Shown: in pieces, positions 1,677 through 52,406 of the stretch
How positions within the stretch are numbered: position 1 is the first letter of the stretch
Layout of the letters: every line of letters starts with the position of its first letter
From: a virus
Lineage: Duplodnaviria > Caudoviricetes
Length of the DNA: 64,000 nt
Strand: one strand, 5' to 3'
Virus record (IMG/VR): IMGVR_UViG_3300044557_000185
Span: 1-64,000 of that record
Position numbers and translations under genes: made by a program
The notes under the pieces: generated by a model
Told to the model about the DNA's origin: nothing
What the model saw: only the letters and a program-made list of their open reading frames with translations
Database searches by the model: none

Positions 1677-4600
1677 CTATCTGTCTTGCTGAATAGACTT
1701 GTTGAACACATAATTGCATATAAATGATGGTGCGCCATTGAAATCGGAACTTCTTTTGCATGTAGTCGATACTAAGTCTCCAGTAGAAAGATAGTCTTTG
1801 AATTTAGAATACGAATTTGCAAATACTGTTATCTTGACTTCTTCTTGAGACACTAGCTTAAGCGTTACCCATGCCATCAAGCCATTCTTAGCATTCTTAG
1901 TCTTCGTAGATGTTATCTTGCCAGCAATCTTAGTAGATTCACCTACATCAGTCTTCATAAGACCAGCCATTGATTGAGGAGATTCAGACATAAGCCAGTC
2001 TTTGTTATCTAGAACATCGTCATATGACAATGATACACCTAGAAGTTCTTGCTCGATCTTAGCAATTATTCTGTCAGATTCGAAATTCTTCTTATATGGT
2101 TTTTCTAGTCCTTTAGATTCTGCAAATGCGCACATCAAATCATATCTGCTTCTTTCGTCTACTCCATCGAAAGCGCCTATTGATATAAGACTTTGAAGAA
2201 CATTCTTCTTTCGACCACCTCTTCCAGTAGTCTTGTCTAGAAAATCGTCGTATGATGAATATGGACCGTTATTGAGAATCTCGTCTACTGCTTTTCCACC
2301 GACTCCCTTTATCGACCACATGGGCATGTATATTGTATCATCGTCAACTACATATCTGTCTGTCGATTTGTTGACATTAGGCGTCTTTACACTGTATCCA
2401 CGAACTATAGCATATTTCAGAAAATCTGTCTGACCTGGATCTGTATTCAAAGATGCGCATATGAACTGCAATGGCCATCTGACCTTCATATATTGTTCGT
2501 ATGCTGTTATCATGCCGTAACTTTTTGCATGTGAAGCATTGAATGAATATTCTGCTGTTCTTGATATTCCAACCCATAGATCGTCAAGACATTCTTTAGG
2601 AGATGAATACTTCACAGGAACATTGTCTATGAAGCTCTTGTCATTAAGACATACATCATAAAGCAACTTCTTCATTGCAGGCACTTTAGTGACTTGCTTC
2701 TTAGAGAACACTTTCCTTACATTGTCTGCTTCTTCCATATTCATGTTGCATAGCCTAGAGTAGATCTTCATGATCTGTTCCTGATATACGACAAAGCCTG
2801 AAGTCTCTTCAAGAATAGAATCTGTGAATGGATGGTAGCTTGGACATCCCTCTTCGCCTTTTCTGACCTTGTAAAAGTCTTTGATAAGCCCACTTCGTAC
2901 AAGACCTGGTCGATCAACAGCTGTAATCATACCTGCATCAGACACTGAATTGATCATAGCATTAGTTGCAGTCGTCTTGCCTAGAGGTGTATCTAGCTGG
3001 AATATGCCCAAGACATCTCCATCCCATGTCGGCTTCCATATCTTAACGCCATCAAAAAGCTTGTCGTTTTGCATATCGGCATATATCGATTCGGGATCAA
3101 GTTTGCCATGTACGCTTTCATATACTTCACGCATAGTTCCAAGAGAAGAAAGCTTGAGAACATCATACTTTATGAATCCCATATCTGCAACTTGATCATG
3201 AGCAAATTGAGTCACTAGAATGCCTTGTGCAACACGAAGCGGCATCTTGCCAAGCAATGACTTCTTAGATATCACATAGCCTGATGCATGCACGCCATAT
3301 GTCCTGATTCTTCCACCGAAATTCCATGCTTCTTTGAAGTATTCTGTCTCATCTACTATCTTCTTGAGGTCTTCATCTTTAGATATGCATTCTATGAAAT
3401 CTTCATAAGTCTGAAGCTCCATGTATTCACCAGTATCCCAGCCTGTTGCAGCAATCTTTCGATTTAGATTGAATATGTCTGAAGAAGAGTATCCATGGAT
3501 AGCGAATACATCATGGACTGAAGTCGATATCTTGCCTTGCAGCTCTGTACCGATTCTGCACACATTCCATTCGCCCCAGCGTTTCTTAAGATATGCATCT
3601 ACTTGTGGAATGACTGAAGCTTCAAAATCGAGATCGATATCAGGACAGTCTTTGAAATCGAAACTAGAATCTAGCTCTTTCCCATATTCTGTATCATCTT
3701 CTTCATACAAAAGCTTCCATGCATCTTTACTTGTGCCATCAGATAGAGATATCTTTTCAGATGGTGAGAATTTCTTCCATCCATCTTCAAACTTGATGTT
3801 GACAGACGATACAACACGTCCTGCTGTAAGAAAACGTTCGAAATACAGACTGTTCTTTATCGGATCAATATTCGTAATTCTCAAGAAGTAGCATACTACT
3901 GAAGCTCCACTTGAACCACGTGCTACACCTAGCAACGAAGCTTTCTTGCCTACAACTCCATACTTAGAGCCATCTTCATCATCTGACAAGACAAAGTTGA
4001 CATAATCCCAGACAATAAGGAAGTATCCTGACAAGTCTGTCTTCTCTATAAGCTCAAGCTCTTTCTTAAGCTCTGCAATATATTCTTGAGCTTGATCTAC
4101 AGAAGGAATTCTTTCCCTAGCACCATCTAAGACAAGCTTTTCAAGCAGTCTGTCATCGTCTTCCTTAGAGTCACCATATCGTGGTGGAACCATACCGAAT
4201 TTGATTTTCGCATTGCAATGATCTGCAACCCATTGTGTATTATCAATAGCAGTCTGAATGTCTTCATCATCAAGACCATGCTTCTTTAGCCAATAGAAGC
4301 ATTCATCTTCAGACATAACCCAAGCAGCTGTCTCTCCACGACCGCTGGTCTTGTCATCATTCAGATCACTACCTTTTCCTGTAGTTGACTGCCATACAAG
4401 CTCATGCCAGCGATAGTCTTCTCTTTTTGCGTAATGAGCATCATTGACTGCTATAGTTCTAAGACCAAGCTTTTTAGCAATCTCAATCTTTACTTTGTTA
4501 GTCTTCGTCATTATGCGATTAAGATTGAACTGCTCTTCAGTCTTTGGATCGCAGAACTGCCAAGTATGAATCTCTACTAGAACATTGTCTTTTCCTACAG

Positions 4601-5174
4601 CATCAATTAGCTTCTTCTCCCATGCAACAGCACCTTTGATATCATCATTAGCTATGCATCTTGACACCCTAGAAAGCATGCAGCCGTCGGATATGAACAA
4701 GCCTTCGCCATACTTCTTAAGCATATTGAAGTCAATACGTGGCTTTCTGTAGAACCCTTCCGTATATGATAGAGTTGAAATAGTCCAAAGATTCTCCAAG
4801 CCTTTGTCATTCTGAGCCCATAAGCAACAATGATTGAAGTCTGAAGCTCTTTGCTTCTCTAATTCAGGTTCGCCAGTCTCTTTATTGTATTTGACCTTTC
4901 CAGCTCTAGTATGAGCTATCCTATCTGTCATGATATCATGAACATCATCTACAAGATATGACTCGATACCGAATATAGGCTTAATAGTAAGATTGTCATC
5001 TGACTGCTTAGCACATTCTTGCGCAAACTTGACATGAATTGCACAAGTTCCATGATCTGTTATAGCTACAGCATTCATGCCAAGACTTTTTGCTCTTGAT
5101 ACAAGTTCTTGACGAGTCTGAAAACCATCCAAACATGAAGAATCAAGATGTTGATGAAGTCCTATGTATGACAT
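1677..5174 (-). CDS. dnaE: DNA polymerase III alpha subunit (family C) with PHP domain
   Basis: HQH/AITDHG/NDAH PHP motifs, RGS, PDIDLDF, HASG, KYDVL, FNASHA, C-terminal OB fold. Confidence 0.97.
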   Translation of the reverse strand: MSYIGLHQHLDSSCLDGFQTRQELVSRAKSLGMNAVAITDHGTCAIHVKFAQECAKQSDDNLTIKPIFGIESYLVDDVHDIMTDRIAHTRAGKVKYNKETGEPELEKQRASDFNHCCLWAQNDKGLENLWTISTLSYTEGFYRKPRIDFNMLKKYGEGLFISDGCMLSRVSRCIANDDIKGAVAWEKKLIDAVGKDNVLVEIHTWQFCDPKTEEQFNLNRIMTKTNKVKIEIAKKLGLRTIAVNDAHYAKREDYRWHELVWQSTTGKGSDLNDDKTSGRGETAAWVMSEDECFYWLKKHGLDDEDIQTAIDNTQWVADHCNAKIKFGMVPPRYGDSKEDDDRLLEKLVLDGARERIPSVDQAQEYIAELKKELELIEKTDLSGYFLIVWDYVNFVLSDDEDGSKYGVVGKKASLLGVARGSSGASVVCYFLRITNIDPIKNSLYFERFLTAGRVVSSVNIKFEDGWKKFSPSEKISLSDGTSKDAWKLLYEEDDTEYGKELDSSFDFKDCPDIDLDFEASVIPQVDAYLKKRWGEWNVCRIGTELQGKISTSVHDVFAIHGYSSSDIFNLNRKIAATGWDTGEYMELQTYEDFIECISKDEDLKKIVDETEYFKEAWNFGGRIRTYGVHASGYVISKKSLLGKMPLRVAQGILVTQFAHDQVADMGFIKYDVLKLSSLGTMREVYESVHGKLDPESIYADMQNDKLFDGVKIWKPTWDGDVLGIFQLDTPLGKTTATNAMINSVSDAGMITAVDRPGLVRSGLIKDFYKVRKGEEGCPSYHPFTDSILEETSGFVVYQEQIMKIYSRLCNMNMEEADNVRKVFSKKQVTKVPAMKKLLYDVCLNDKSFIDNVPVKYSSPKECLDDLWVGISRTAEYSFNASHAKSYGMITAYEQYMKVRWPLQFICASLNTDPGQTDFLKYAIVRGYSVKTPNVNKSTDRYVVDDDTIYMPMWSIKGVGGKAVDEILNNGPYSSYDDFLDKTTGRGGRKKNVLQSLISIGAFDGVDERSRYDLMCAFAESKGLEKPYKKNFESDRIIAKIEQELLGVSLSYDDVLDNKDWLMSESPQSMAGLMKTDVGESTKIAGKITSTKTKNAKNGLMAWVTLKLVSQEEVKITVFANSYSKFKDYLSTGDLVSTTCKRSSDFNGAPSFICNYVFNKSIQQDR

Positions 5175-5648
5175 CTACAAATCCTTTTCTTTTCTATTCT
5201 TAAGCAATTCGTCTACAATGAAATCAGTAGAATACAACTCGGTATCGTATTCGAAAACGAATGGCATGAAAGACTTGAACATGCCATAATAGAAGTCGTA
5301 AAATTCTAATTGCCTGCTAGAATCAACTTTGACTTTATTCATGAAACTGTCTTTTACATCAGCTTTGTCAAATTCTTCATCTACTCTATTTTGAAGAATT
5401 GATGCTCTAGAATGCACATAGATGATTTCATAATGCTGCTTTGCAGATTCAAGAAAAGCTAGTCTTTCATCAAGAACATCTTCATTAGTTCTATTGAAAT
5501 AAGCATCAAGAACAATACTATCTGCAATGCCTCTGTCTTGAATGAACTCAAAAGAGAATTTGTCTTTTCCAAGACGTTTTCTGAAACAATTTAGTATAGT
5601 TGACTTTCCAGACCTGTCTGGACCAATCAATTCGATATATGGAATCAT
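5175..5648 (-). CDS. P-loop nucleoside monophosphate kinase (thymidylate kinase-like)
   Basis: IELIGPDRSGKST Walker A, QDRG motif. Confidence 0.8.
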   Translation of the reverse strand: MIPYIELIGPDRSGKSTILNCFRKRLGKDKFSFEFIQDRGIADSIVLDAYFNRTNEDVLDERLAFLESAKQHYEIIYVHSRASILQNRVDEEFDKADVKDSFMNKVKVDSSRQLEFYDFYYGMFKSFMPFVFEYDTELYSTDFIVDELLKNRKEKDL

Positions 5649-11344: not shown

Positions 11345-11424
11345 AGGTTTATCTCTGTGAACTTAACATGCCAAAGATATATAATTATATATACTTACTA
11401 TCTTAAGTTCACATAGAACAACGT
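11345..11424 (+). repeat. 80-bp dyad element copy 2
   Basis: AGGTTTATCTCTGTGAACTTAA...ATATATAATTATATAT...TTAAGTTCACATAGAACAACGT. Confidence 0.95.
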
Positions 11425-17289: not shown

Positions 17290-17760
17290 CTCACATGCGC
17301 GGGCCCCTGCCTAGCCCAATGATAGATCGCGCATGCGCATACATGCATCTGACCGCTGCGCGGGCAACGTGAGGCGTGAGTGATGTGTGCGAGCACACGT
17401 ATATGTATGTATGCACATGTATCATGTATGTATGTATGTATGTATGCATATGTATCGTATACGCATGTATCTATCTGAAAGATAGATATATTACGTGTGT
17501 GCATGTATGTATGTTTTCATGTATTCTCATATATGTTTTCATGTATTTTTTATATGTATTTTTTATGTATATTCATATATTTTTCTGCATGTGCACGTGT
17601 ACGTATCTATCTGAAAGATAGATAGATAAACGTGTATATGTGCCGACGTGTCTGTGCATGCATGTACGTATGCATGTCTGCATGTGCGAGAGAGTGTGCA
17701 AGGAGACAGAAAAAGAATGCATGTGTGTGAGCATGCAAGCTAGCATATGCATGCAAGTGA
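17290..17760. repeat. Alternating purine-pyrimidine low-complexity tract with (ATGT)n and two TATCTATCTGAAAGATAGATA hairpins
   Basis: Seen directly; hairpins at ~17468-17488 and ~17604-17624. Confidence 0.9.
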
Positions 17761-17819
17761 GCTGCGAGAAAGCTTCTGCTAGCTAATGTGAAGGAATTGT
17801 GAAATATTTCAAAAAATGG

Positions 17820-17848
17820 TTTACATTAGTGAAAATGTATGTTACTAT
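17820..17848 (+). promoter_or_regulatory. Phage promoter TTTACA-17-TACTAT with extended -10 TG
   Basis: Right member of a divergent pair. Confidence 0.75.
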
Positions 17849-18333
17849 TCAAAATATAAATCAAAAACAACCTATTTGAAAGGACATCAGAAATACATCA
17901 AAGCATCTTGTTCTGCTTTCACAAATACATTCATTAGCATGGAATGATGCAGAAGCATCAGATTGCGCGTAACCCAGCTAGAAACTGATTAGACGCTTCT
18001 GGTCAATGCTTCGAACAAAGCACAATTTGCATAAGATGAGAAAGTACTTGACATAGCTGACAATCTAGTGAGCATGCAGCAAATATGATGTGGAGAGATG
18101 CCCATATGATGCTGATCGTGCGGTAGCAGAGGCCAGATGGTTGAGACATTCATAATGCAACACAGATATTCTGTATAGGCATTTGCCTACATGGCGCTCC
18201 TGGCGTCATGAGACTAAGAGCAGAGTCAATAGGATATCATCTTACGAAGAGCACAAGCATCATAGCACACTTTAAGAATAGCAGCAGAAGACAAGTCTTT
18301 GAATCATGAGAAGTCAATCAGGAGAACACTTAG

Positions 18334-18867
18334 TTGAACATCATATATTTGCAGACAGCATTATTTGCTGCAATTGCAATATTAGCGATAGTAGTCTTGC
18401 ATTACGTCAAGCAGACATGCAAACTAGTACAATACGATAAGAAGATTGATGCATTCTATCTTCAGAATTCAGGTCTTTCATACTTTCGATTGAGTGAGAA
18501 GTCTCATAGCTATATACCTGTCTTGTGCAGCAATGATGATGAACATTATAAGCTTCTGTCAAGTCTTGGCTATGAAATGATGGGATACGATGGATCTGAA
18601 GCTCAAAAAGTCGGTGCTACGGCTATAGAAAATGGCAGAGCATGCTTCATCTTAGACGGCAGAAACGTAAGCAAAAGAAAGACGCAATTGTATGCTGACA
18701 GGCAGTTCTTCATTGACGATGACTGCATAATCATCAATACATGCAAGACACTTGGGCTAGCGCTTGCAATAAGAATGACTAATGCTAACGGATCAGCAAA
18801 AGAATGCTTCAAGTCAGAACTAGAAAAGATGATTGACGTCATCAAGAATAACGACGTTGTTCTCTAA
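18334..18867 (+). CDS. Membrane-anchored hypothetical protein
   Basis: AGGAG RBS, N-terminal hydrophobic helix; last codons are encoded by dyad element copy 3. Confidence 0.75.
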   Translation: MNIIYLQTALFAAIAILAIVVLHYVKQTCKLVQYDKKIDAFYLQNSGLSYFRLSEKSHSYIPVLCSNDDEHYKLLSSLGYEMMGYDGSEAQKVGATAIENGRACFILDGRNVSKRKTQLYADRQFFIDDDCIIINTCKTLGLALAIRMTNANGSAKECFKSELEKMIDVIKNNDVVL

Positions 18868-18933
18868 TAATACATAATCTTAAGTATTATAAATTATATA
18901 TACTTATACTTCTGAGTTCATAGAGATAAACGT
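18854..18933 (-). repeat. 80-bp dyad element copy 3
   Basis: ACGTTGTTCTCTA...TATTATAAATTATATAT...GTTCATAGAGATAAACGT. Confidence 0.95.
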
Positions 18934-19029
18934 CGTTAATCCTGGATACGTTTCTATTTAGATTGAAACATAACATCAACACAAACAATCGAAAAGTAAA
19001 AGAATTGATCAGAATGTTCTGAATCTGAT

Positions 19030-19058
19030 TTTACAAAGATCGGTTTTTGGTATATAAT
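19030..19058 (+). promoter_or_regulatory. Phage promoter TTTACA-17-TATAAT driving tnpB
   Basis: Same consensus as the other phage promoters. Confidence 0.85.
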
Positions 19059-19093
19059 AAAACTATGATGAATAGATTGGTAGGTGACATATC

Positions 19094-20380
19094 ATGATGA
19101 ATTATGAAACCCGCCTGTCTAAGAATCGTAAGATTGCTCAGCATGGAAAAGATACTCGCAATCGTAGAAAGAATCAAGACTGTAAAGTCTTCTCTATCAA
19201 GATTCAGACTAACAAATTAAGCCATATTCAGAAAGAACAGCTTAAGATGCTGTTTGTTGAAGCAAAATGGCTTAAGAACGATATTCTTGCTAAAGGTGTC
19301 AAAGGCTACGTAATCGGTAACCAAGTCGATGTCAAGACTCCTACTGGTTATGTATCAAGGAAGTTTGAATATCTTGGATCTAGAATTCGTCAGTCTGTTC
19401 TTGCTGAAATAAAGCAAAACATTAAAGCATTGTCAGTTCTAAAAAAGAAGGGTCGGCATGTAGGAAAGCTTAAGTTTGTTTCTGAAGTTGCAGAACTTGA
19501 TCTAGCTCAGTATGGAAAAACATATACGATTAAAGCTAATAAAGTTCATATTCAGAAAGTTCATGGATGGATGCTTGCTGGTGGAACAGATCAAGTTCAA
19601 GGCTATGAACTTGCAAATGCAAAGCTATTGAGCAAACCAGATGGATACTATCTGAACGTTACATGCTTCAGAGACAAACAAGAAGATGCATTCTTGAAAG
19701 ACTCAGCTATCGGTATCGATATGGGTGTCAAAACTCACATTACAATGTCTGATGGAACTAAGATCAAAGCAACAGTTGAAGAAACTGAGCACCTGAGACG
19801 ACTTAAGCAGAAACTATCTCGTCAAGAAAAGGGCTCTAACAGCTATTGCAAGACTAAGGTCCAGATCAGAAGACAGTATCAGAAGCTGACAAACAAAAAG
19901 AACGACATATCTAATCATATAGCAAACTATCTATTGCGATACAATCATGTATGCATGCAAGACGAGAACATAAAGTCTTGGAAGACAAAGAAGTCTTTGT
20001 CTCGTGGTTCAAGAACGATTCAGCATTCGATCTTGGGTAGAGTCAAAGCTAGACTTGTTCGTAATCCTAGGACTATTGTTCTTGACAGGTTTGAGCCAAC
20101 AACAAAGCTATGCAAGTGTGGTTTTAAGAACAGCGTATCTTTGTATGACAGAACATACCATTGCAACGTATGTGGCTATACAAATGATAGAGATGTTCAT
20201 GCAGCACAGAATATGATTAGAATTGCTGAACAGAATAATAGACTTGTACCTATGGAGCATAGGGACTTTAAGCCAGTGGAGAGCTTGTTAGACGTATTGA
20301 CGGAATTTGCTGATACGCAGAACTCTATGAAGCTGGAAGTAGTTAGCTTGTCTAACTACAACTCATTAGAATTGTACTAG
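19094..20380 (+). CDS. tnpB: TnpB RNA-guided endonuclease (IS200/IS605/IS607 family), no TnpA partner in window
   Basis: IGIDMG (RuvC-I), MQDENIK, TTKLCKCG..CNVCG zinc ribbon, DRDVHAAQN (RuvC-III). Confidence 0.93.
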   Translation: MMNYETRLSKNRKIAQHGKDTRNRRKNQDCKVFSIKIQTNKLSHIQKEQLKMLFVEAKWLKNDILAKGVKGYVIGNQVDVKTPTGYVSRKFEYLGSRIRQSVLAEIKQNIKALSVLKKKGRHVGKLKFVSEVAELDLAQYGKTYTIKANKVHIQKVHGWMLAGGTDQVQGYELANAKLLSKPDGYYLNVTCFRDKQEDAFLKDSAIGIDMGVKTHITMSDGTKIKATVEETEHLRRLKQKLSRQEKGSNSYCKTKVQIRRQYQKLTNKKNDISNHIANYLLRYNHVCMQDENIKSWKTKKSLSRGSRTIQHSILGRVKARLVRNPRTIVLDRFEPTTKLCKCGFKNSVSLYDRTYHCNVCGYTNDRDVHAAQNMIRIAEQNNRLVPMEHRDFKPVESLLDVLTEFADTQNSMKLEVVSLSNYNSLELY

Positions 20381-20385
20381 CGATG
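20245..20385 (+). ncRNA. Putative TnpB omegaRNA (scaffold overlapping the 3' end of tnpB, plus guide ~20366-20385)
   Basis: Hairpins CCTATG-GAG-CATAGG (20249-63) and GTAGTTAG-CTTGT-CTAACTAC (20339-59) after ATGAAGCTGGAA, ending AACTCA; layout typical of TnpB right ends; boundaries inferred. Confidence 0.6.
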
Positions 20386-20391
20386 TCACCA

Positions 20392-20427
20392 GATTAACGA
20401 CGTTTATCTCTATGAACTCAGAAGTAT
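20392..20427 (+). repeat. Half dyad element (copy 4); perfect 36-bp inverted repeat of 18906-18941
   Basis: GATTAACGACGTTTATCTCTATGAACTCAGAAGTAT. Confidence 0.95.
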
Positions 20428-20428
20428 T

Positions 20429-23400
20429 CTAATATATTATCTTGTCGCCATCGAAGTACTGTATGCCTGCAGACTTCATCAAGTTCCAGTCTCTCTTGTT
20501 TGCTATCAAGCATTCAGTGAATTGAGTCTTGCTGTCAGTCATCATCATTACTTTGACAGAGGCTATAGTCTTGGATGTATCGCCAGAAATAGTAGAGAAT
20601 CCAGTAAGTCTGTGAAGCCTGTCTTGATCGCTTACTTTGCCTGACGATATGAGATTAGTATCTGAGAAAGTGCTGTCTGAGTAGACTACTCTCAAAAGCA
20701 GAGTGCTGTTGCCAGTGCTAGACATTATTCTGCAAGATGCGTATATCGTATCTCCGACAGCTATTGCTGAGCCATCTGCATAGTTATTTCCAATAGTCGC
20801 AGATACAGTGCCATTCTGCTTGCCATATGTCTTCTCTGCTTCTATTCCGTATCCAGGCAGCTGCTTAGCTTCAGCTTGCCACGTATTGTTCCAGCTTGCA
20901 GTGCATCTTGGATCTGTCACCAGATTGCTAGCTTCAGTGCCATATGAATTGCCATCGAACCATTGTGCTCCATCGATTCCTGCAGACACCCAGTCATCAG
21001 AAGAGCACAATATGAACGCATCGTATCTTATGTCTGCAGAATTGTATATCGATATGGAGAAGCTGTTAGCGGTTGCAGGGACATTGAAGTCGTAGTCGTT
21101 TCTTTGCCATAGAGAGCTATTTGTCTTGATAGCTCCAAAGTCTTTGACAGAGCCGTCATTGAACAGTATCTTGATGCTAGCTTTCCTTGATGAATCGTAT
21201 GCGTTAGCATAGAATGACAGATGATATGACGAAGATGCAGCTACGAATGGCTTAGTCTGTATAGAATAAGATCCATCGCCACCTTTAGCTCTCAGCATCG
21301 TCTTGCCGGCATATGGAATGCACCATGAAGCATCTGATATCGTATTGATTGCCCATGTGCCAGACATCTGCCCGAAGTCTTCAAGACTGCTCATCGAAGG
21401 CGACTTGAACAGATTGACAGCATCTGAGAATGTTAAGTCTACTACTTTAGCATCATCACACCATATGCTTCTGTCAGATTCTAGCTTGTTGTTGAAGAAC
21501 TCTAGACGCATAGACATAGTGGTAGAATTTGGTACGCAGTATGCGACGAATTCTTGCCATCCATTAGCAGACAGCAGCTTGAAGTCGCCATCATTCAACG
21601 AGACTACATCTCCGTCATCTAGAGCAGACAAACGGACTAGATCGTCTGAAGCATTATCGGAGTCTGTCTTAGCGAAGAATGACATAGCGTACTTGTGGCC
21701 AGGTATGACTGATATGCTGTCAGATGAAGCATAATCATTCTCAACTCCAGTTCTAGACGAGAACTTAAGCGACTTAGCTCCATCATGATGCTGGCCATCA
21801 TCTATCTGCACTAGTCCCTGATTAGACACAGACCAGTTAGACAGATCTTGCTCAAACGAGCTGTTCTGCAGCAGATTGCTTACAGTGTAGTTCTTGCTTA
21901 TGACAGAGTAAGATGCTTCTGGAATGCCAGACCAGAACGATGTCAGTCTTGGATTTGATGTCTTTAGCGTAGAGATGGAGCTGTCTCTGCTGCCAAGCCA
22001 TCTTGAGCTGGCAGACTGATATCCAGCACTTATAGTGTCGCCATCGAAGTAGTCTATTCCGAATCTGTCAGCTATTGCTTGATCAGAATCTGACATTACT
22101 GTGCATGCAGCAAAAGATATGCTTGCAGGTATTCCTGACTTCGAGCTGTCTGAGTAGTCAAGCTTCAAAGCCAGCCTTCCACTGAGGCTGCCTATTGCAG
22201 GAGCGTGGATTGACTGCTTATGCCAACTTGTGCCGATTGAGATCGTGCTAGGAGTAGATATTGCATACGATGCGACATTGTCAGCATACATGATTAGAGA
22301 TGCGCTTACGTTGATGTCAGTGTCAGCTCTTAATGAGAACTTAGTCGTGAAGCTGCTGTTCTGTATGTTGCTGTAGTCGAATGCAGACATCGTATCTGTA
22401 AGCAAGAATATGACAGTCTTCACAGTACTGTCTACTTGCAAAGCATTTATGATGTTCTTGCTAGCTTCTACGCAAGTGCCAGATTCGGTTGTGGAGTCGT
22501 TGACTACAGAAGCAGCAGACAGTGGCACCATGATGTCATTAGTAGCTGGCTTAGAGAACTTAGCTAGATTAGCTATGCTATAGTCTTCGCCGTCATTCGA
22601 TATCTGAAGATGAGATGCAGAGTAGTCTTTGCTGCCAAGCCATGCGTTGTCATAAGACGTGTCGATCGTAGTCTTGTCATCGTAGATGTAGTTGACAGCA
22701 TCCTTGAATGGTATGTATGTTGGCATTATTCTTATCGAAGAGAACCAGTCTTCAGGGTCTATCATCTCTATTCTGACTTGCATTGCATTTCCAGCATTCT
22801 TGAATGTGTATTCAGAATTCGGGTTCAAGACAGCAGAGGATATGTCTTCCCAATCAGTTTCGCTAGATGATCCAGTATTTTTAGCGAATATCGTTATAGT
22901 GCCAGTCTCTATGTAAGCGTCTTTTATGTAGAAGTCAAGCTGGGAGAAGTCATCTATCTCTAGAAGCAGTTCGTAAGTTCCGCCCATATTGAACATCTTG
23001 AATCTAGACGTCTGCAGTAGCTGCCATGATGACGTTTTCTCAGAATCAAGCAGGACGTCTTCCTGCCGTATGACTTTCTCTTCATTTGCAGCAGACACTA
23101 TCTTGAATGTAGCAGATATCTTGCTGTCAGACCTAGTAGACTTGACCAACTGGAATATAGACACACCAGCTTGCACTGTGGTTCTGTCCGATATGTCTAT
23201 GCTACCAAGGCGTATGACAAATGGAGACCTTGATCCATCTGGAGCGATCCTGATGTCTTGCGGATTGACAATGTACTCCTTGACTAGCTCAGAATTGTAC
23301 CAGACTGCTTGAGAGTCGCCCTGGGTCACAGTGCTTGTGAATGCATCGCCCCAAGAGAATGCAGCAGAAGACCATACTTGCCCATTAGCGGGATTGTCTT

Positions 23401-33290: not shown

Positions 33291-35102
33291 CTATCGTTGC
33301 CAAGTGAATACTGACGTTCCGCAATTGAATACTCTCCAATAGCCAGCTTTAGACATGGTTGCATATTCATCTTTCATTTGAGTGCTATATCTTGATAGTA
33401 TGTCAATGCCATTAGTCCAAATGTACGAAGGATCAGTGTATCTTTCGAATTTCATGCCAATCTTTAGATAGCCATTTCCAGTGAATTTAGCTCTGTCACA
33501 ATATGATATTACTTTGTCAAATCCCCAGATTCTTATAGCGTTCTTGAATAGTCTAGATTCGCCACCAATGACATTGATACCAGTCTTGTTTGCAAATCGT
33601 AATAGCTCCATTCCATCAAAATTGTTGAATCTTGGCTTTCCGAATGTCATGACTGCAACAAGTTCTCTATTGAAACTCAATCCAATTCGATATTTGCTAT
33701 TGACGTTTCCTTGAAGATGATTAGAATCTAAGAATTTTTTAGCTTCGCTAGAAGATACTTCAACTACTTCGCATTTTCTTGCAAAGATTCTTCTATCTTT
33801 ACAAAACGAAGACTTTATCATAGACTTCACAATATCTTGCTTATGCCACCATTCATTCTCATATACGTGCATCAGTCTTATGCCAAGCTTATTGCAGCTC
33901 TCGGTCTTTTGCAATGCAGCAACTTTTCCTGCATATTGCTCAGAATGCCAGTATAGGCCATCAAATTCAAAAGCAATCTTGTTCTTCTTTGAATAGACAT
34001 CCAGCTCTTTGCCTTTTAGAGCTTTTCTATCGCAGCATGCATCTTCATCAAAAGTCTTGACAAAATCTAGAAGCTCTAGCTCTCCTTGGGAATGCTGAAT
34101 TTCATTATGTCCTAAGAATTTGTCTTGCAAGTTCAAATTTCGTATACGTCTACCAACTTGCTGAGAATATAGACCAAAGTCTTTCATGAATGAATAGTAT
34201 GTATTAGACTTAGAATCTTCTATGATTTTCTTAGCATATTCGTCGTCTTCGAAGAATCGTATCTGGTTTTCTGACCATCCATTATTTCTCATTCTTGTCA
34301 TTCTTGTCTTCTTTTTGAATTCAGGACTATCATAAATGACTTTCATTTTAGCTTTGAATTCAGGCTTGTTCATAGCTTTTGATATCGATGCAGACAGTTT
34401 AGCTCTAACTTCCGGTCTGCTCATATATTTCTTAATTGCGATGCTTTGCTTTTCACGAGAACCAGGCTTTTCAAAATAAGCTTTTCTGCCATCTGAAATA
34501 GCTTTTCTTACTTCAGGCCTTTTCATGACTTCAGGAGTCGTATTCCTAATGATTTCAGTCATTTTAGCTTTGAATTCTGGATTAGACCATCGTTCATAAG
34601 CCTTAGCAGACAATTTTGCTTTACATTCTTCAGATAAGACTTTTCCAATATTGTTTTCATGATATGCTTCACGATAGCCTGGAGAAGCCCATCTTTTCTT
34701 CATGACTTCAGATTTGATAGCTTTAGTCTTTTCAGATTCTTTTCTTCCAATTCTAGATGCAGACATTTTTGCTTTTGTTTCATCAGAAAAAACTCTGCCT
34801 TTCATTTTTTCTGACATTTTGTCTCTAAATGCAATATCATGATACTTCTTATGATTAGCTAAGCTTTTCTTAGTCTTGTATGTATTGCAACATATATCGC
34901 ATTTCCATTCAAAATGAGAGTCTTTGCATTTCTTGCATTCTGGCAGCTCTTTAATGCTATTGTATTCTTTTCCACAAGTCTTGCAAACGAAAGTCTTTGT
35001 TCTGCAATGTCTGCAAAGACCATCAACAACTCCAACTTTAAATTGCCTTCCACATTTTTCACATGTCTTTATTTCATATGCCATGTTTATATTATATAAC
35101 AA
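33291..35102 (-). CDS. Free-standing homing endonuclease (NUMOD3-like repeats plus Hef/Vsr-like nuclease); start probably 35084
   Basis: Zn fingers, SDETKAKMS repeats, ELDVY..AFEFDGLYWHS, IFARKCEV, NHLQG. Confidence 0.8.
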   Translation of the reverse strand: MLYNINMAYEIKTCEKCGRQFKVGVVDGLCRHCRTKTFVCKTCGKEYNSIKELPECKKCKDSHFEWKCDICCNTYKTKKSLANHKKYHDIAFRDKMSEKMKGRVFSDETKAKMSASRIGRKESEKTKAIKSEVMKKRWASPGYREAYHENNIGKVLSEECKAKLSAKAYERWSNPEFKAKMTEIIRNTTPEVMKRPEVRKAISDGRKAYFEKPGSREKQSIAIKKYMSRPEVRAKLSASISKAMNKPEFKAKMKVIYDSPEFKKKTRMTRMRNNGWSENQIRFFEDDEYAKKIIEDSKSNTYYSFMKDFGLYSQQVGRRIRNLNLQDKFLGHNEIQHSQGELELLDFVKTFDEDACCDRKALKGKELDVYSKKNKIAFEFDGLYWHSEQYAGKVAALQKTESCNKLGIRLMHVYENEWWHKQDIVKSMIKSSFCKDRRIFARKCEVVEVSSSEAKKFLDSNHLQGNVNSKYRIGLSFNRELVAVMTFGKPRFNNFDGMELLRFANKTGINVIGGESRLFKNAIRIWGFDKVISYCDRAKFTGNGYLKIGMKFERYTDPSYIWTNGIDILSRYSTQMKDEYATMSKAGYWRVFNCGTSVFTWQR

Positions 35103-39478: not shown

Positions 39479-39558
39479 ACGTTGTTCTCTGTGGACTTAA
39501 TTCGGTCTATATATATAATTATATATCTTCATACATCTATGTTCACAGAGATAAACGT
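39479..39558 (-). repeat. 80-bp dyad element copy 7
   Basis: ACGTTGTTCTCTGTGGAC...TATATATAATTATATAT...GTTCACAGAGATAAACGT. Confidence 0.95.
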
Positions 39559-50292: not shown

Positions 50293-52241
50293 ATCACCTG
50301 ATACTGAACTGTAAGAGTGCTTGCAGATGCATTAGCTGCACCTGTCCATGCTGTAGCAAATGGAGTTGTAGCATCGACTTCATATGATTCCAATCCTCTG
50401 CCTATTGACAGCTCGTTCTCTTTCATAGCTATAGAGTCATCACCAAGAGCTATGGAATGCTTGTATCCTGAATATCCACCAATAGAGCTTGTCTTGGCGA
50501 CATGACGTTCATTGCCATCTTCATCCTGGACGATGTCATATTCTATGAAGCCAGGCGCTTTTTCTGTCAGCTCTATTCTACCCCATATGCATTGTGCAGA
50601 TTCTGCATTCAAGAACTGATTAGTATCGTTCTCAGGAGTATTCAAGTATATCGTGTAGACGTAATGAGCATCGTATTCCGTAGAAAGCTTATTGTCTATG
50701 AAACCTTGAGATTGCGATGCATTTTCTATGCCAAGCCATGAAGTGTAGATTGTCTGACCAGATTCAGTACGTACCTCTCTGACTTTGAATGGAGATCTAG
50801 CTAATACGAATGTTCCTACAGATGTGCCTATGATAGATCGTATTGGATCATTAGCTTTTCCAGAACCTTTTATAGTGACGCCATCGACAGCAATAGCCAT
50901 ATTGCCAGAAAGAGTGTCAATGTAGTGCTTGTTGACAGCATCGAAGTCATCTGACGGATCATTGACATTTGACAAGCGACGTCTCAATGACGTGGAAGCA
51001 TCACCAAATGACACTTGAAGAGGATCTGTCGTCTTTGATTCATTGCCAATAGCTACTGAATTCTGACTTGCTGCAGCGTCTTTTCCTATAGCTACTGAAT
51101 CAGTTGCAGATGCATTGTCTCCTATTGCTGTTCCATTGCTAGCATTGACTCCAGATCCGAAAGCTACTGAGCCAGAAGCTGTTATGTTCGAGCCTACAGC
51201 TGTAGAGTTAGAAGTATTTGAGTCTGTTCCTGCCAGTATGTTGACGAACTGCTTGTTAGCTGCAGCTAATGCAGATTCTTTAGCTAAAGCATAAGTAGTC
51301 ATTGCTATGCCGCTAGCAGACAATGGCGAGTTAGTTATAGACGTCTCGTCTACAGCTTTCCAGTCTACTTTTCTATTAGCGTAGTCTGTAAGATTTGCAT
51401 TCAGAGTCTCTATGTCTGAAGCGTTCTTAGATACAGATGTGTTCAGATCGCTAAGCTTCTGATTTGATGATACTGTCTGTCCATTGCTGAATACAGCAAG
51501 ATCACCATCAGCTGCAGAAGAGTCTTTGTCTTGCTTCTTAGCGTAGTTAGTCTGAAGCACAGACACTGCTTTATTCAGAGTATCTAAGTCTGTCTGCTTA
51601 GCAAGAGTAGATATGGCGATCATCGTCTGATTGCCGTTGTCGTCTGTAGCATACATTGAATTCTGAGAGCTAGACAGATGCAGCACTTCGCTGTCTTTAG
51701 CTATGTTGGCAAGATTGACTACGCCATCAGATATCGGCACAGCAATGCCACCAACTTGTATCTGCTGCACTCCCTTTAGTGAAGCTATGTCATATACAGT
51801 TTGCTTGCCATTAGCATCTGTGCCGTAGATCATGTTAGCCATGTCAGTAGTGACAAGCATAGAAGTCATGTTTATGACAGCCACATTGTTCTTGACTACA
51901 GAAGCGCCATTGACTACTACATCTGCTACAGCATTAGCATTGCCGTACTGGAATACGATAGCATTAGAAGCTTGACCGCCATCTGTAGATGGATTGACTA
52001 CAAATACGCTGAATGGCGGAGTGAATGTTATAGGGTCTGCTACGATTATGTCAGATGCTTCTCTAGTCACTGACCTTACTGCAAGTTGCTCTAGCTTGTC
52101 ATCGACTGAAACGAATACTTGCGCATCGTCATCAAATCCTGAGCCTACAAGAGAGCACACTTCTGCGCCAAGTATGACAGACATTAGTCTCAGACCATTG
52201 TCATACTGCAATGGTCTTATGTATGTCGTATCACTAGCCAT
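50289..52241 (-). CDS. Tail fibre with YadA-like head repeats and neck
   Basis: AIG..A.A..S repeats; VSFG..RRLSNV.DP..DFDAVNK. Confidence 0.75.
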   Translation of the reverse strand: MASDTTYIRPLQYDNGLRLMSVILGAEVCSLVGSGFDDDAQVFVSVDDKLEQLAVRSVTREASDIIVADPITFTPPFSVFVVNPSTDGGQASNAIVFQYGNANAVADVVVNGASVVKNNVAVINMTSMLVTTDMANMIYGTDANGKQTVYDIASLKGVQQIQVGGIAVPISDGVVNLANIAKDSEVLHLSSSQNSMYATDDNGNQTMIAISTLAKQTDLDTLNKAVSVLQTNYAKKQDKDSSAADGDLAVFSNGQTVSSNQKLSDLNTSVSKNASDIETLNANLTDYANRKVDWKAVDETSITNSPLSASGIAMTTYALAKESALAAANKQFVNILAGTDSNTSNSTAVGSNITASGSVAFGSGVNASNGTAIGDNASATDSVAIGKDAAASQNSVAIGNESKTTDPLQVSFGDASTSLRRRLSNVNDPSDDFDAVNKHYIDTLSGNMAIAVDGVTIKGSGKANDPIRSIIGTSVGTFVLARSPFKVREVRTESGQTIYTSWLGIENASQSQGFIDNKLSTEYDAHYVYTIYLNTPENDTNQFLNAESAQCIWGRIELTEKAPGFIEYDIVQDEDGNERHVAKTSSIGGYSGYKHSIALGDDSIAMKENELSIGRGLESYEVDATTPFATAWTGAANASASTLTVQYQVI

Positions 52242-52327
52242 TTGATTCTGTCACCTTTTTGTGTTTGCCATCTTTATATGATTATATCAAAGATATGTTT
52301 TGATTGCAGTAGTAGTCGATATTAATG

Positions 52328-52406
52328 ACGTTGTTCTCTGTTGATACAAAATTTTAGTATATATAATTATATACATTCTATACTAGATGTTCACAGAGAT
52401 AAACGT
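52328..52406 (-). repeat. Dyad element copy 8 (79 bp)
   Basis: ACGTTGTTCTCTGTTG...TATATATAATTATATA...GTTCACAGAGATAAACGT. Confidence 0.95.

Follow-up and report, generated by a model that had tools for sequence, protein, structure and literature searches.

Why is a tnpB gene in a phage genome enclosed by a perfect inverted repeat, and did this repeat move the gene, turn it around, or arise together with it? The locus lies in the first 64 kb (positions 1 to 64,000, hereafter the window) of the virus record IMGVR_UViG_3300044557_000185 (G000), which is complete at 108,378 bp and has direct terminal repeats. By its appearance, G000 is a tailed phage with a contractile tail and its own DNA polymerase and ligase, and the sequence was found in bioreactor-sludge and wastewater metagenome runs. 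An initial annotation had noticed a 36-bp inverted repeat around the gene (tnpB1) and proposed either a recent recombination or duplication at a repeated dyad site, which delivered or flipped a 1.5-kb tnpB cassette, or an invertible segment. We compared the site with three related phages (G001, G002, and G003), in which the corresponding flank has the opposite orientation. The bracketed segment was probably inverted by homologous recombination between two dyad arms, and the insertion sequence (IS) that carries tnpB1 is smaller than the bracket.

The inverted repeat and the dyad family

Positions 18906-18941 are the exact reverse complement of positions 20392-20427 (36/36), and 100 dinucleotide-preserving shuffles gave no match, which confirms the repeat as first noticed. 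With mismatches admitted, it reaches 49 nt at 90% (18893-18941 and 20392-20440). The left arm (R1) belongs to a complete dyad element that sits between two convergent genes, one for a 177-aa protein on the plus strand and one for a 2,418-aa protein on the minus strand that matches a minor tail protein family (PHROG). This dyad element is also present in G001, G002, and G003. The right arm (L2) is only half an element, as had been pointed out before: the stop codon of the 2,418-aa open reading frame (ORF) is found at 20429-20431, two bases past the arm.

Dyads of this kind are composed of an outer extension, the box AACGACGTT, a GTTCTCTGTGAAC-like part, a variable spacer, and the centre TATATATAATTATATATA, followed by the mirror image. 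The box occurs eight times in the window against an expectation of 0.12, and approximately 20 dyad arms are spread over the 108-kb genome, in line with the proposed derivation of the bracket from a dyad element. When the 20 arms with an intact ACGTCGT box were compared with each other (190 pairs), the median identity was 24/36, and the second-best pair after R1 and L2 reached 32/36. The full identity of R1 and L2, which includes the variable spacer, is exceptional among the arms, and the earlier claim to this effect holds. The outer extensions of the two arms differ, but both are canonical (CTGGATAC at 18942 and TGGTGACATCG on the minus strand). Because each arm has its own canonical extension, the two look like genuine arm units with 36-nt cores that were made identical, and not like a 36-bp stretch copied by itself.

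The tnpB element inside the bracket

The protein encoded by tnpB1 matches the Pfam families PF01385 (OrfB_IS605; 39.1 bits, cut-off 30.5) and PF07282 (Cas12f1-like TNB with a zinc finger; 38.3 bits, cut-off 26.3). It could be aligned to the ISDra2 TnpB structures 8BF8, 8EX9, 8EXA, and 8H1J (E 1e-17), with matches at the D/E/D positions (D in GIDMG, E in QDEN, D in DRDV), which we take to be the acidic positions of RuvC. Between tnpB1 and the copy in G001, 41 of 1,273 aligned bases differ with a pN/pS of 0.28, and both genes are intact.

The boundaries of the element, here called IS1, were read from four copies at four sites. Each copy starts with AAT right after (G/T)ATA(T/C) and ends with ..TCAT, although the boundaries of IS1 are ambiguous by 2 nt owing to an AT repeat at the junctions. 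The left end lies 38 nt ahead of the tnpB start codon, the two ends (AAT... and ...TCAT) are not inverted repeats, and filled and empty alleles join without a target duplication at three of the four sites, the fourth being off by up to 7 nt. As both arms lie outside these boundaries, 114 nt away on the left and 25 nt on the right, the 36-bp repeat is not a transposon end, and the initial annotation was right not to treat it as a terminal repeat.

The last 30 to 40 nt of the element are conserved in 18 homologues, distant metagenomic ones included, and comprise GGAAG, a hairpin, and (G)TAGTTCA(C/T). Four of the six stem pairs of this hairpin show compensatory changes, the 3' end ..TCA(C/T) is invariant in the 18 homologues, and the conserved module stops exactly at the right boundary of the element. 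Judged by this pattern, the module fits the 3' end of a TnpB guide-RNA (omegaRNA) scaffold. As a whole, the 177-nt 3' region has no advantage in folding over shuffled sequences (z = -0.79), and an Rfam search of positions 18700-20700 returned only three chance-level matches (E 0.15-0.54), far under the gathering scores.

As a side observation, most homologues carry a stop codon inside the conserved ..TAGTTCA(C/T) end, which is lost in tnpB1. The gene reads into the flank, where its last four to five residues and its stop are set by the insertion site (20367-20380); in the G001 copy, the stop is a TAA that spans the junction.

Empty sites and the inversion

The four phage genomes are 91-96% identical, and G001, with 93-96% identity, is collinear with G000. 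In G001, G002, and G003, no tnpB lies between the 177-aa and 2,418-aa genes, and each of them has a single arm. The joined form without tnpB is also present in contigs of the runs X2 and X3. A pair of inverted arms without tnpB, the arrangement that the initial annotation had named as speaking against its proposal, was found in none of the three relatives. Read in the window orientation, the site in G002 and G003 consists of the left arm, the centre, an R1 equal to that of the window, TGATGATATCA, CTAGTACAATTCTA, and ATATATTATC, the last being the end of the tail gene.

The orientation of the segment was read from its right flank. The reverse complement of 20366-20427, which covers 26 nt after the IS and the right arm, matches the empty site of G002 at 59 of 62 positions, versus 41 of 62 for the forward sequence of the window, and 36 of these 41 are R1 itself. 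The right arm is therefore the native R1 with its flank, read from the other strand. Collinearity with the relatives stops exactly at 18941 and resumes at 20427/20428. Because the flank is reversed, at least one inversion of the bracketed segment is needed to relate the window to the three relatives, whichever state is ancestral. The comparison with tnpB-less relatives, which had been suggested with the initial annotation, upholds one half of its claim that recombination at a dyad delivered or flipped a 1.5-kb cassette: the segment was flipped, but the mobile unit is the 1,311-bp IS, which stands unbracketed at three other sites.

On the minus strand, the site of the relatives reads ..GATAATATAT directly followed by TAGAATTGTACTAGTGATAT, that is, the target motif and then the guide-matching bases. 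Next to TATAT, 18 of 20 bases match the predicted IS1 guide in the empty site of G002 and G003, and 14 of 20 in that of G001. This geometry of TATAT and guide is that of an IS605-type insertion, and tnpB would therefore originally have been co-directional with the 2,418-aa gene. When the segment was flipped back in silico and the IS removed, the G002 allele was obtained with 154 additional nt (the second arm and the segment x to the left of the IS), bounded by the 11-nt direct repeat ATTCTAATATA. Since the flip-back leaves only these 154 nt, the whole difference amounts to one IS insertion, one inversion, and one indel. The 154 nt were either lost in the common ancestor of the relatives or gained in the lineage of the window, both being equally parsimonious. 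Locally, the three relatives resemble each other more than any of them resembles G000, which fits either direction of this change. The 'recent duplication' of the initial annotation is thus only one of two polarities; the relatives may have lost the 154 nt instead.

Segment x contains a perfect 14-bp palindrome (19009-19022), a -35-like TTTACA (19030-19035), and the target-adjacent motif TATAT (19051-19055). For its non-promoter part (18942-19050), no homologue was found in G000, G001, or the other loci compared, and an exact 22-mer of x was not found in the viral contig collection. A pattern search for the flank of this site retrieved G002 and G003 only, and a BLAST search of window positions 17500-22500 against the GenBank phage collection gave zero matches.

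Two further observations concern the same site. The palindrome TCAGAATGTTCTGA, which closely precedes the -35 hexamer of the predicted tnpB promoter, has an operator-like look. Compared with the tnpB1 guide, the empty site of G001 (approximately 97518-97540; locus L031, approximately 4610-4640) has mismatches at 6 of 20 positions, two of them within the first eight, and those of G002 and G003 at 2 of 20. The local divergence of G001 is above its genome average, which could reflect an escape from cleavage or chance.

Origin of the bracket

We regard it as probable that the 36-bp repeat is both the substrate and the trace of homologous recombination, by which the arm-bracketed segment was inverted between two dyad arms. 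The IS would have inserted directly 3' of TATAT (TATAT/TAGAAT) and would produce a guide RNA from its 3' end, with the adjacent flank from 20367 serving as the guide. Recombination between the arms would have inverted x, the IS, and the guide flank (18942-20391), moving tnpB from the majority to the minority strand, and an indel would have occurred between the 11-nt repeats. These are three standard events, given here in no particular order, and gene conversion probably keeps the arms perfect. In six frames of the complete genome, no match to PF01797 (Y1 TnpA) was found, with positive controls. Likewise, PF00239 (serine recombinase/resolvase/invertase) and PF00589 (tyrosine recombinase) had no match at E up to 0.1 when all six frames of the complete 108-kb genome were searched; the controls of these searches were positive in 13 and 14 of 14 genomes. 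The absence of TnpA is expected for tnpB-only elements. Because the genome holds no detectable TnpA, serine recombinase, or tyrosine recombinase, the inversion is best explained by homologous recombination and not by a programmed switch.

Several points weigh against this explanation. Inversion alone does not account for the identity of the arms, as all other pairs differ at 4 or more of 36 positions, and either gene conversion or an inverted duplication is needed in addition. A length of 36 bp is short for efficient homologous recombination. Segment x has no source in the sequences searched, and scans of viral, metagenome, and bacterial sequences yielded no more relatives and no intermediates, neither a flipped segment with the IS nor a two-armed site without it. 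As no intermediate relative was found, we infer the order and polarity of the events. The X12 contigs discussed below cross the arms at k=31, which suggests that the repeat is imperfect in that strain. Finally, the activity of TnpB and its guide RNA, the target motif, and the promoter are predictions from sequence.

All metagenome runs were used as k=31 contigs (Logan contigs for X1, the likely source run). In X1, a unitig of 36 nt consists of the repeat only and has approximately twice the depth of its neighbours (325 versus 153, 171, and 91). Since the k=31 contigs break at the repeat, those of X1 do not fix the orientation. X12 is a run from another study, in which a 270-nt contig begins within tnpB, crosses the right arm, and ends in the tail gene (20303-20556, nine differences), and a 177-nt contig leads from 18911 through x to 19074, with centre-like letters before it. 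Both contigs agree with the window orientation, and the opposite orientation, which would join R1 to TGGTGACATCG or L2 to CGTATCCAG, was not seen in X12.

Several alternatives were considered. An assembly artefact, in which the repeat collapsed in the graph and the inner segment was oriented arbitrarily, would fit the contig breaks of X1 exactly at the repeat; it is extremely improbable, as the X12 contigs from another study cross both arms in the window orientation and the repeat, x, and the IS are present in either orientation. Ordinary reads are longer than 36 bp, as are the larger k values of metagenome assemblers, which also counts against an artefact. A programmed invertible segment, with the arms as recombinase sites and tnpB flipped as a regulated switch in the manner of the Mu G and P1 C segments, was the second proposal of the initial annotation. 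A perfect inverted repeat around a 1.45-kb segment with changed orientation relative to the relatives is what such a switch would look like, and the conserved symmetric dyad boxes resemble protein-binding sites. Still, the proposal found no support: the complete 108-kb genome has no detectable serine or tyrosine recombinase, X12 shows the window orientation only, the sole gene in the flipped piece is a selfish one, and G000 and G001 are collinear elsewhere with no other inversion despite approximately 20 dyads each. We therefore judge it very unlikely. The geometry of the locus would also allow a role at the RNA level, in which a transcript from the dyad through tnpB pairs R1 and L2 into a 36-bp duplex that acts as a processing or stability signal and, in addition, fixes where the guide RNA ends, 25 nt past the scaffold; the right arm indeed begins 25 nt after the scaffold end. 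However, the predicted tnpB promoter (19030-19058) lies inside the bracket, downstream of R1, so that the main tnpB transcript would lack the 5' arm and a spanning transcript would have to start upstream. The other three IS copies are unbracketed, the spacers of dyad arms are generally not complementary (38-40 of 60 positions in the seven dyads that passed the filter), and such a role appears highly improbable.

A one-step origin, in which the second arm was made in the event that brought x and the IS, is unlikely, but it is a serious alternative. It could have proceeded through a TnpB-made break that was repaired with template switching on the palindromic dyad, or through an inversion with staggered breaks beside R1, and by either route the arm would have been duplicated in inverted orientation. 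This would account for two arms that are exactly identical when all other pairs differ. The site of the relatives offers TATAT and 18 of 20 guide bases, where TnpB1 could cut, and the one-sided pattern at the four insertion sites, with a differing upstream side and a continuous right flank, fits break repair with co-conversion as it is described for phage homing endonucleases in the relevant part of PMC13565253. On the other side, each arm has its own canonical outer extension (CTGGATAC; TGGTGACATCG), which points to two separate arm units, the 11-nt direct repeats fit a simple indel, and neither a source for x nor an intermediate was found. Homologous recombination between the arms remains the explanation that we prefer.

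Some further candidates were tried and rejected. The bracket is not a composite or terminal-inverted-repeat-bounded transposon: no direct repeat flanks the two arms on their outer sides (..ATATATACTT and TCTAATATATT..), relatives without tnpB have the left arm as native sequence, and the other three copies are unbracketed. A target duplication by the IS was dismissed as the source of the arms, because insertions of the IS605 type produce no such duplication and both arms are external to the IS. The idea of homing into the site of the relatives in the window orientation was likewise rejected, as motif and target are there on the other strand.

Other copies, target motif, and promoter

The four phages hold four tnpB insertions, all of them presence/absence polymorphisms and each beside a dyad or related palindrome. 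Apart from IS1, a second copy in G000 lies on the minus strand at approximately 70366-71675 (69% DNA identity to tnpB1), G001 carries one at another site (69632-70942; locus L009, approximately 3974-5284) that is 96.7% identical to IS1 over 19052-20366, and a fourth is found at a fourth site in G002 and G003 (in G003, locus L069, approximately 1463-2774). Each of these three further copies is closely preceded by a dyad or related palindrome and by a TATAAT-like box. None of them is bracketed by arms, and all three are on the majority strand; only the bracketed IS1 is on the minority strand. The empty alleles of the three other sites are found at 51716-51777 of G001 and at 52285-52352 and 72905-72945 of G000. 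Filled and empty alleles have a continuous right flank at all four sites, but they differ on the upstream side of the IS, over the 40-200 nt that reach back to the dyad. For the third site, the search for an orthologue in G002 and G003 gave matches only on dyads, the flanks being too diverged or absent.

Beyond these phages, a metagenome scan for the IS lineage gave 33 loci, mostly at 34-49% identity, with one 32-residue match at 66%. The viral scan returned G001 as the sole close match, and no related element was found in the scan of bacterial genomes.

The left-end flanks of the four copies read GTATAT, TGATAT, TGATAT, and TGATAC, and the empty sites directly before the guide-matching sequence read ATATAT, TGATAT, and ATATAT, with one of the four sites being ambiguous. 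As the first bases of the IS, AAT, complete a TATAAT -10 box, tnpB would gain a promoter upon insertion. The same hybrid -10 box is present in the G001 copy and in the second G000 copy, and that of the G002/G003 copy is TACAAT. In a literature search, no description of TnpB elements that rebuild a -10 box was found, which is weak evidence of absence.

A broader and rather unlikely idea is that tnpB-only elements spread without TnpA by RNA-guided cutting of co-infecting relatives and copy-repair, with the dyads serving as portable left homology. Insertions would then target TATAT/AAT -10 boxes and rebuild the promoter each time, the arm at 20392-20427 would be a scar of one-ended template-switch repair, and the bracket would now permit the cassette to flip.

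Features of the locus and its surroundings

The coordinates of all features at the locus are summarized in Table 1.

Table 1. Features of the tnpB1 locus, in window coordinates
Feature	Position	Strand	Remarks
Dyad element 1, full	18845..18941		left-arm box AACGACGTT at 18850-18858, AT-rich centre at ~18885-18903, right arm R1
Left arm R1 (R-type dyad arm)	18906..18941	+	native; identical in G002/G003, 1 mismatch in G001
Segment x, 114 nt	18942..19055	+	missing from all relatives; starts with the canonical dyad outer extension CTGGATAC
Sigma-70-like promoter, TTTACA-17-TATAAT (11/12), predicted	19030..19058	+	hybrid -10: TAT from the target motif, AAT from the IS start
IS1, tnpB-only IS200/IS605-type, 1,311 bp	19056..20366	+	four copies with common ends, lengths 1,308-1,311 nt
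tnpB1 ORF, 428 aa	19094..20380	+	last codons and stop in the flank past the IS right end
Guide-RNA (omegaRNA) scaffold, terminal hairpin and 3' end, predicted	20340..20366	+	stem TAGTTAG/CTAACTA, then CAACTCAT
Predicted guide/native flank	20367..20391	+	TAGAATTGTACTAG and dyad outer extension; in the relatives directly right of R1, reversed
Right arm L2 (R-type arm read on the minus strand)	20392..20427	-	together with 20366-20391 equals R1 and flank of the relatives, 59/62
Centre-like AT-rich stretch TCTAATATATTAT	20428..20440	-	contains the stop and final codons of the 2,418-aa tail-protein gene; makes up the outer portion of the imperfect repeat of 49 nt

The dyads themselves gave rise to some side observations. 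A reading of the dyads as long RNA or DNA hairpins was rejected, since their spacers lack complementarity and their boxes, though conserved, do not covary; among those with an AATT axis, just seven (two in G000, five in G001) reach 38-40 complementary positions of 60. Arms throughout the genome (e.g., window 11405-11412 and 39540-39546) contain (A/G)GTTCA(C/T), the same letters as the end of the IS and guide-RNA scaffold, (G)TAGTTCA(C/T), and the outer extensions of dyads hold GATAT-like motifs that resemble the insertion target. This sharing of letters may be a coincidence or a hint of shared history. The resemblance between the arm (CTCTATGAACTCAGAAG) and the 3' region of tnpB (CTCTATGAAGCTGGAAG), like that of the arm hexamer GTTCA(C/T) to the terminal motif of the IS, may be due to chance.

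In the dyads upstream of two copies (G000 approximately 71700-71740, minus strand; G001 69550-69580), the arm on the tnpB side lacks approximately 9 nt that hold the ACGTCGT box, and the empty alleles matching these two dyads keep the box or its 1-nt variant ACGTCAT. The loss of the box may mean the loss of an operator or just a diverged allele. At 72860-72950 of G000, the ATATAATTATAT core is shared by another palindrome of shorter length (CAGATTAACTGTAGTAATTGAAGCTTG ... with the mirror image) that has it at its centre, and in G002 and G003 the palindrome half upstream of the fourth IS insertion is replaced by the cassette.

Elsewhere in the window, approximately 700 nt (17622-18333) between the minus-strand gene block and the plus-strand 177-aa gene are free of ORFs of at least 60 aa on either strand. 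At 33291-35099 (minus strand), a 602-aa HNH/homing-endonuclease-like protein is encoded (PHROG 3339, E 4e-78), which represents a second kind of selfish nuclease in this phage; its gene adjoins a dyad centred at approximately 35198 and the major head protein gene.

Comparison with known systems

For better comparison, the element and its bracket are considered side by side with four known systems. IS1 resembles the tnpB-only members of the IS200/IS605 family (IS1341-type) and ISDra2 in its TnpB with OrfB_IS605 and zinc-finger TNB domains, in the absence of terminal inverted repeats and of a target duplication, and in its position directly 3' of a short AT-rich motif with a right flank that is continuous with the empty site; a putative structured 3' RNA module that would end at the element boundary may be a further likeness. 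ISDra2 likewise prefers an AT-rich 5' target, with the motif TTGAT according to the passage on this element in PMC13565253. In contrast, the target of the IS1 family is (G/T)ATA(T/C). Further differences from the IS200/IS605 family are that the phage genome holds no TnpA, that the insertion splits a -10-like box and appears to rebuild TATAAT for tnpB, that no more than 38 nt separate the left end from the tnpB start, that the ORFs of IS1 and the G001 copy have no internal stop and end at or past the junction, and that the host is a tailed phage of roughly 105 kb.

With regard to the bracket, the Mu G segment with Gin and the P1 C segment with Cin are site-specific invertible phage segments that carry tail-fibre exons as cargo. 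As in these systems, a short inverted repeat surrounds a phage segment that changes orientation; unlike them, G000 has no invertase gene, the cargo is a selfish nuclease, and the repeat is a generic intergenic element with approximately 20 copies. Both systems are cited in the introduction of a report on Anabaena cyanophages (bioRxiv 10.64898/2026.02.14.705889), the relevant sections of which describe genomic isomers of approximately 30 kb flanked by inverted repeats of 500-700 bp. According to these sections, both isomers were shown by PCR and read mapping, and in one of the cyanophages a tnpB lies just inside the invertible module, adjoining the repeat (10.64898/2026.02.14.705889). Measured against that account, G000 is alike in having a phage segment that is bounded by an inverted repeat and reversed relative to its relatives with no recombinase identified, and unlike in that the repeat measures 36 bp and the segment 1.45 kb and that the orientation is here read from contigs. 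A literature search found no description of a tnpB insertion bracketed by repeat arms of the host genome, although this is weak evidence of absence.

The polymorphic insertions also recall the free-standing homing endonuclease genes of T-even phages, for which co-conversion of the flanks is described in the part of PMC13565253 devoted to them. Within the scope of that description, the similarities are the presence/absence pattern among close phages, the replacement of neighbouring sequence along with the gene, without sharp boundaries, and a predicted TnpB target that equals the empty allele of the relatives. The differences are that the target would be read by a guide RNA and not by a protein, and that the element reaches new sites, IS1 and the 96.7% identical G001 copy being at different loci.

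Each of the four filled/empty polymorphisms comes with an exact natural empty site, with a target motif that can be read, and with a guide matching the empty allele of relatives. They form a compact natural system for asking if co-infecting phages use TnpB against each other as a homing or competition nuclease, and by which route tnpB-only elements, which lack their own transposase, arrive at new sites. The dyad repeats mark places of DNA exchange in the phage. In terms of the known systems, the element belongs to the tnpB-only branch of IS200/IS605, and its bracket falls among the repeat-mediated inversions, a fairly ordinary kind of rearrangement.

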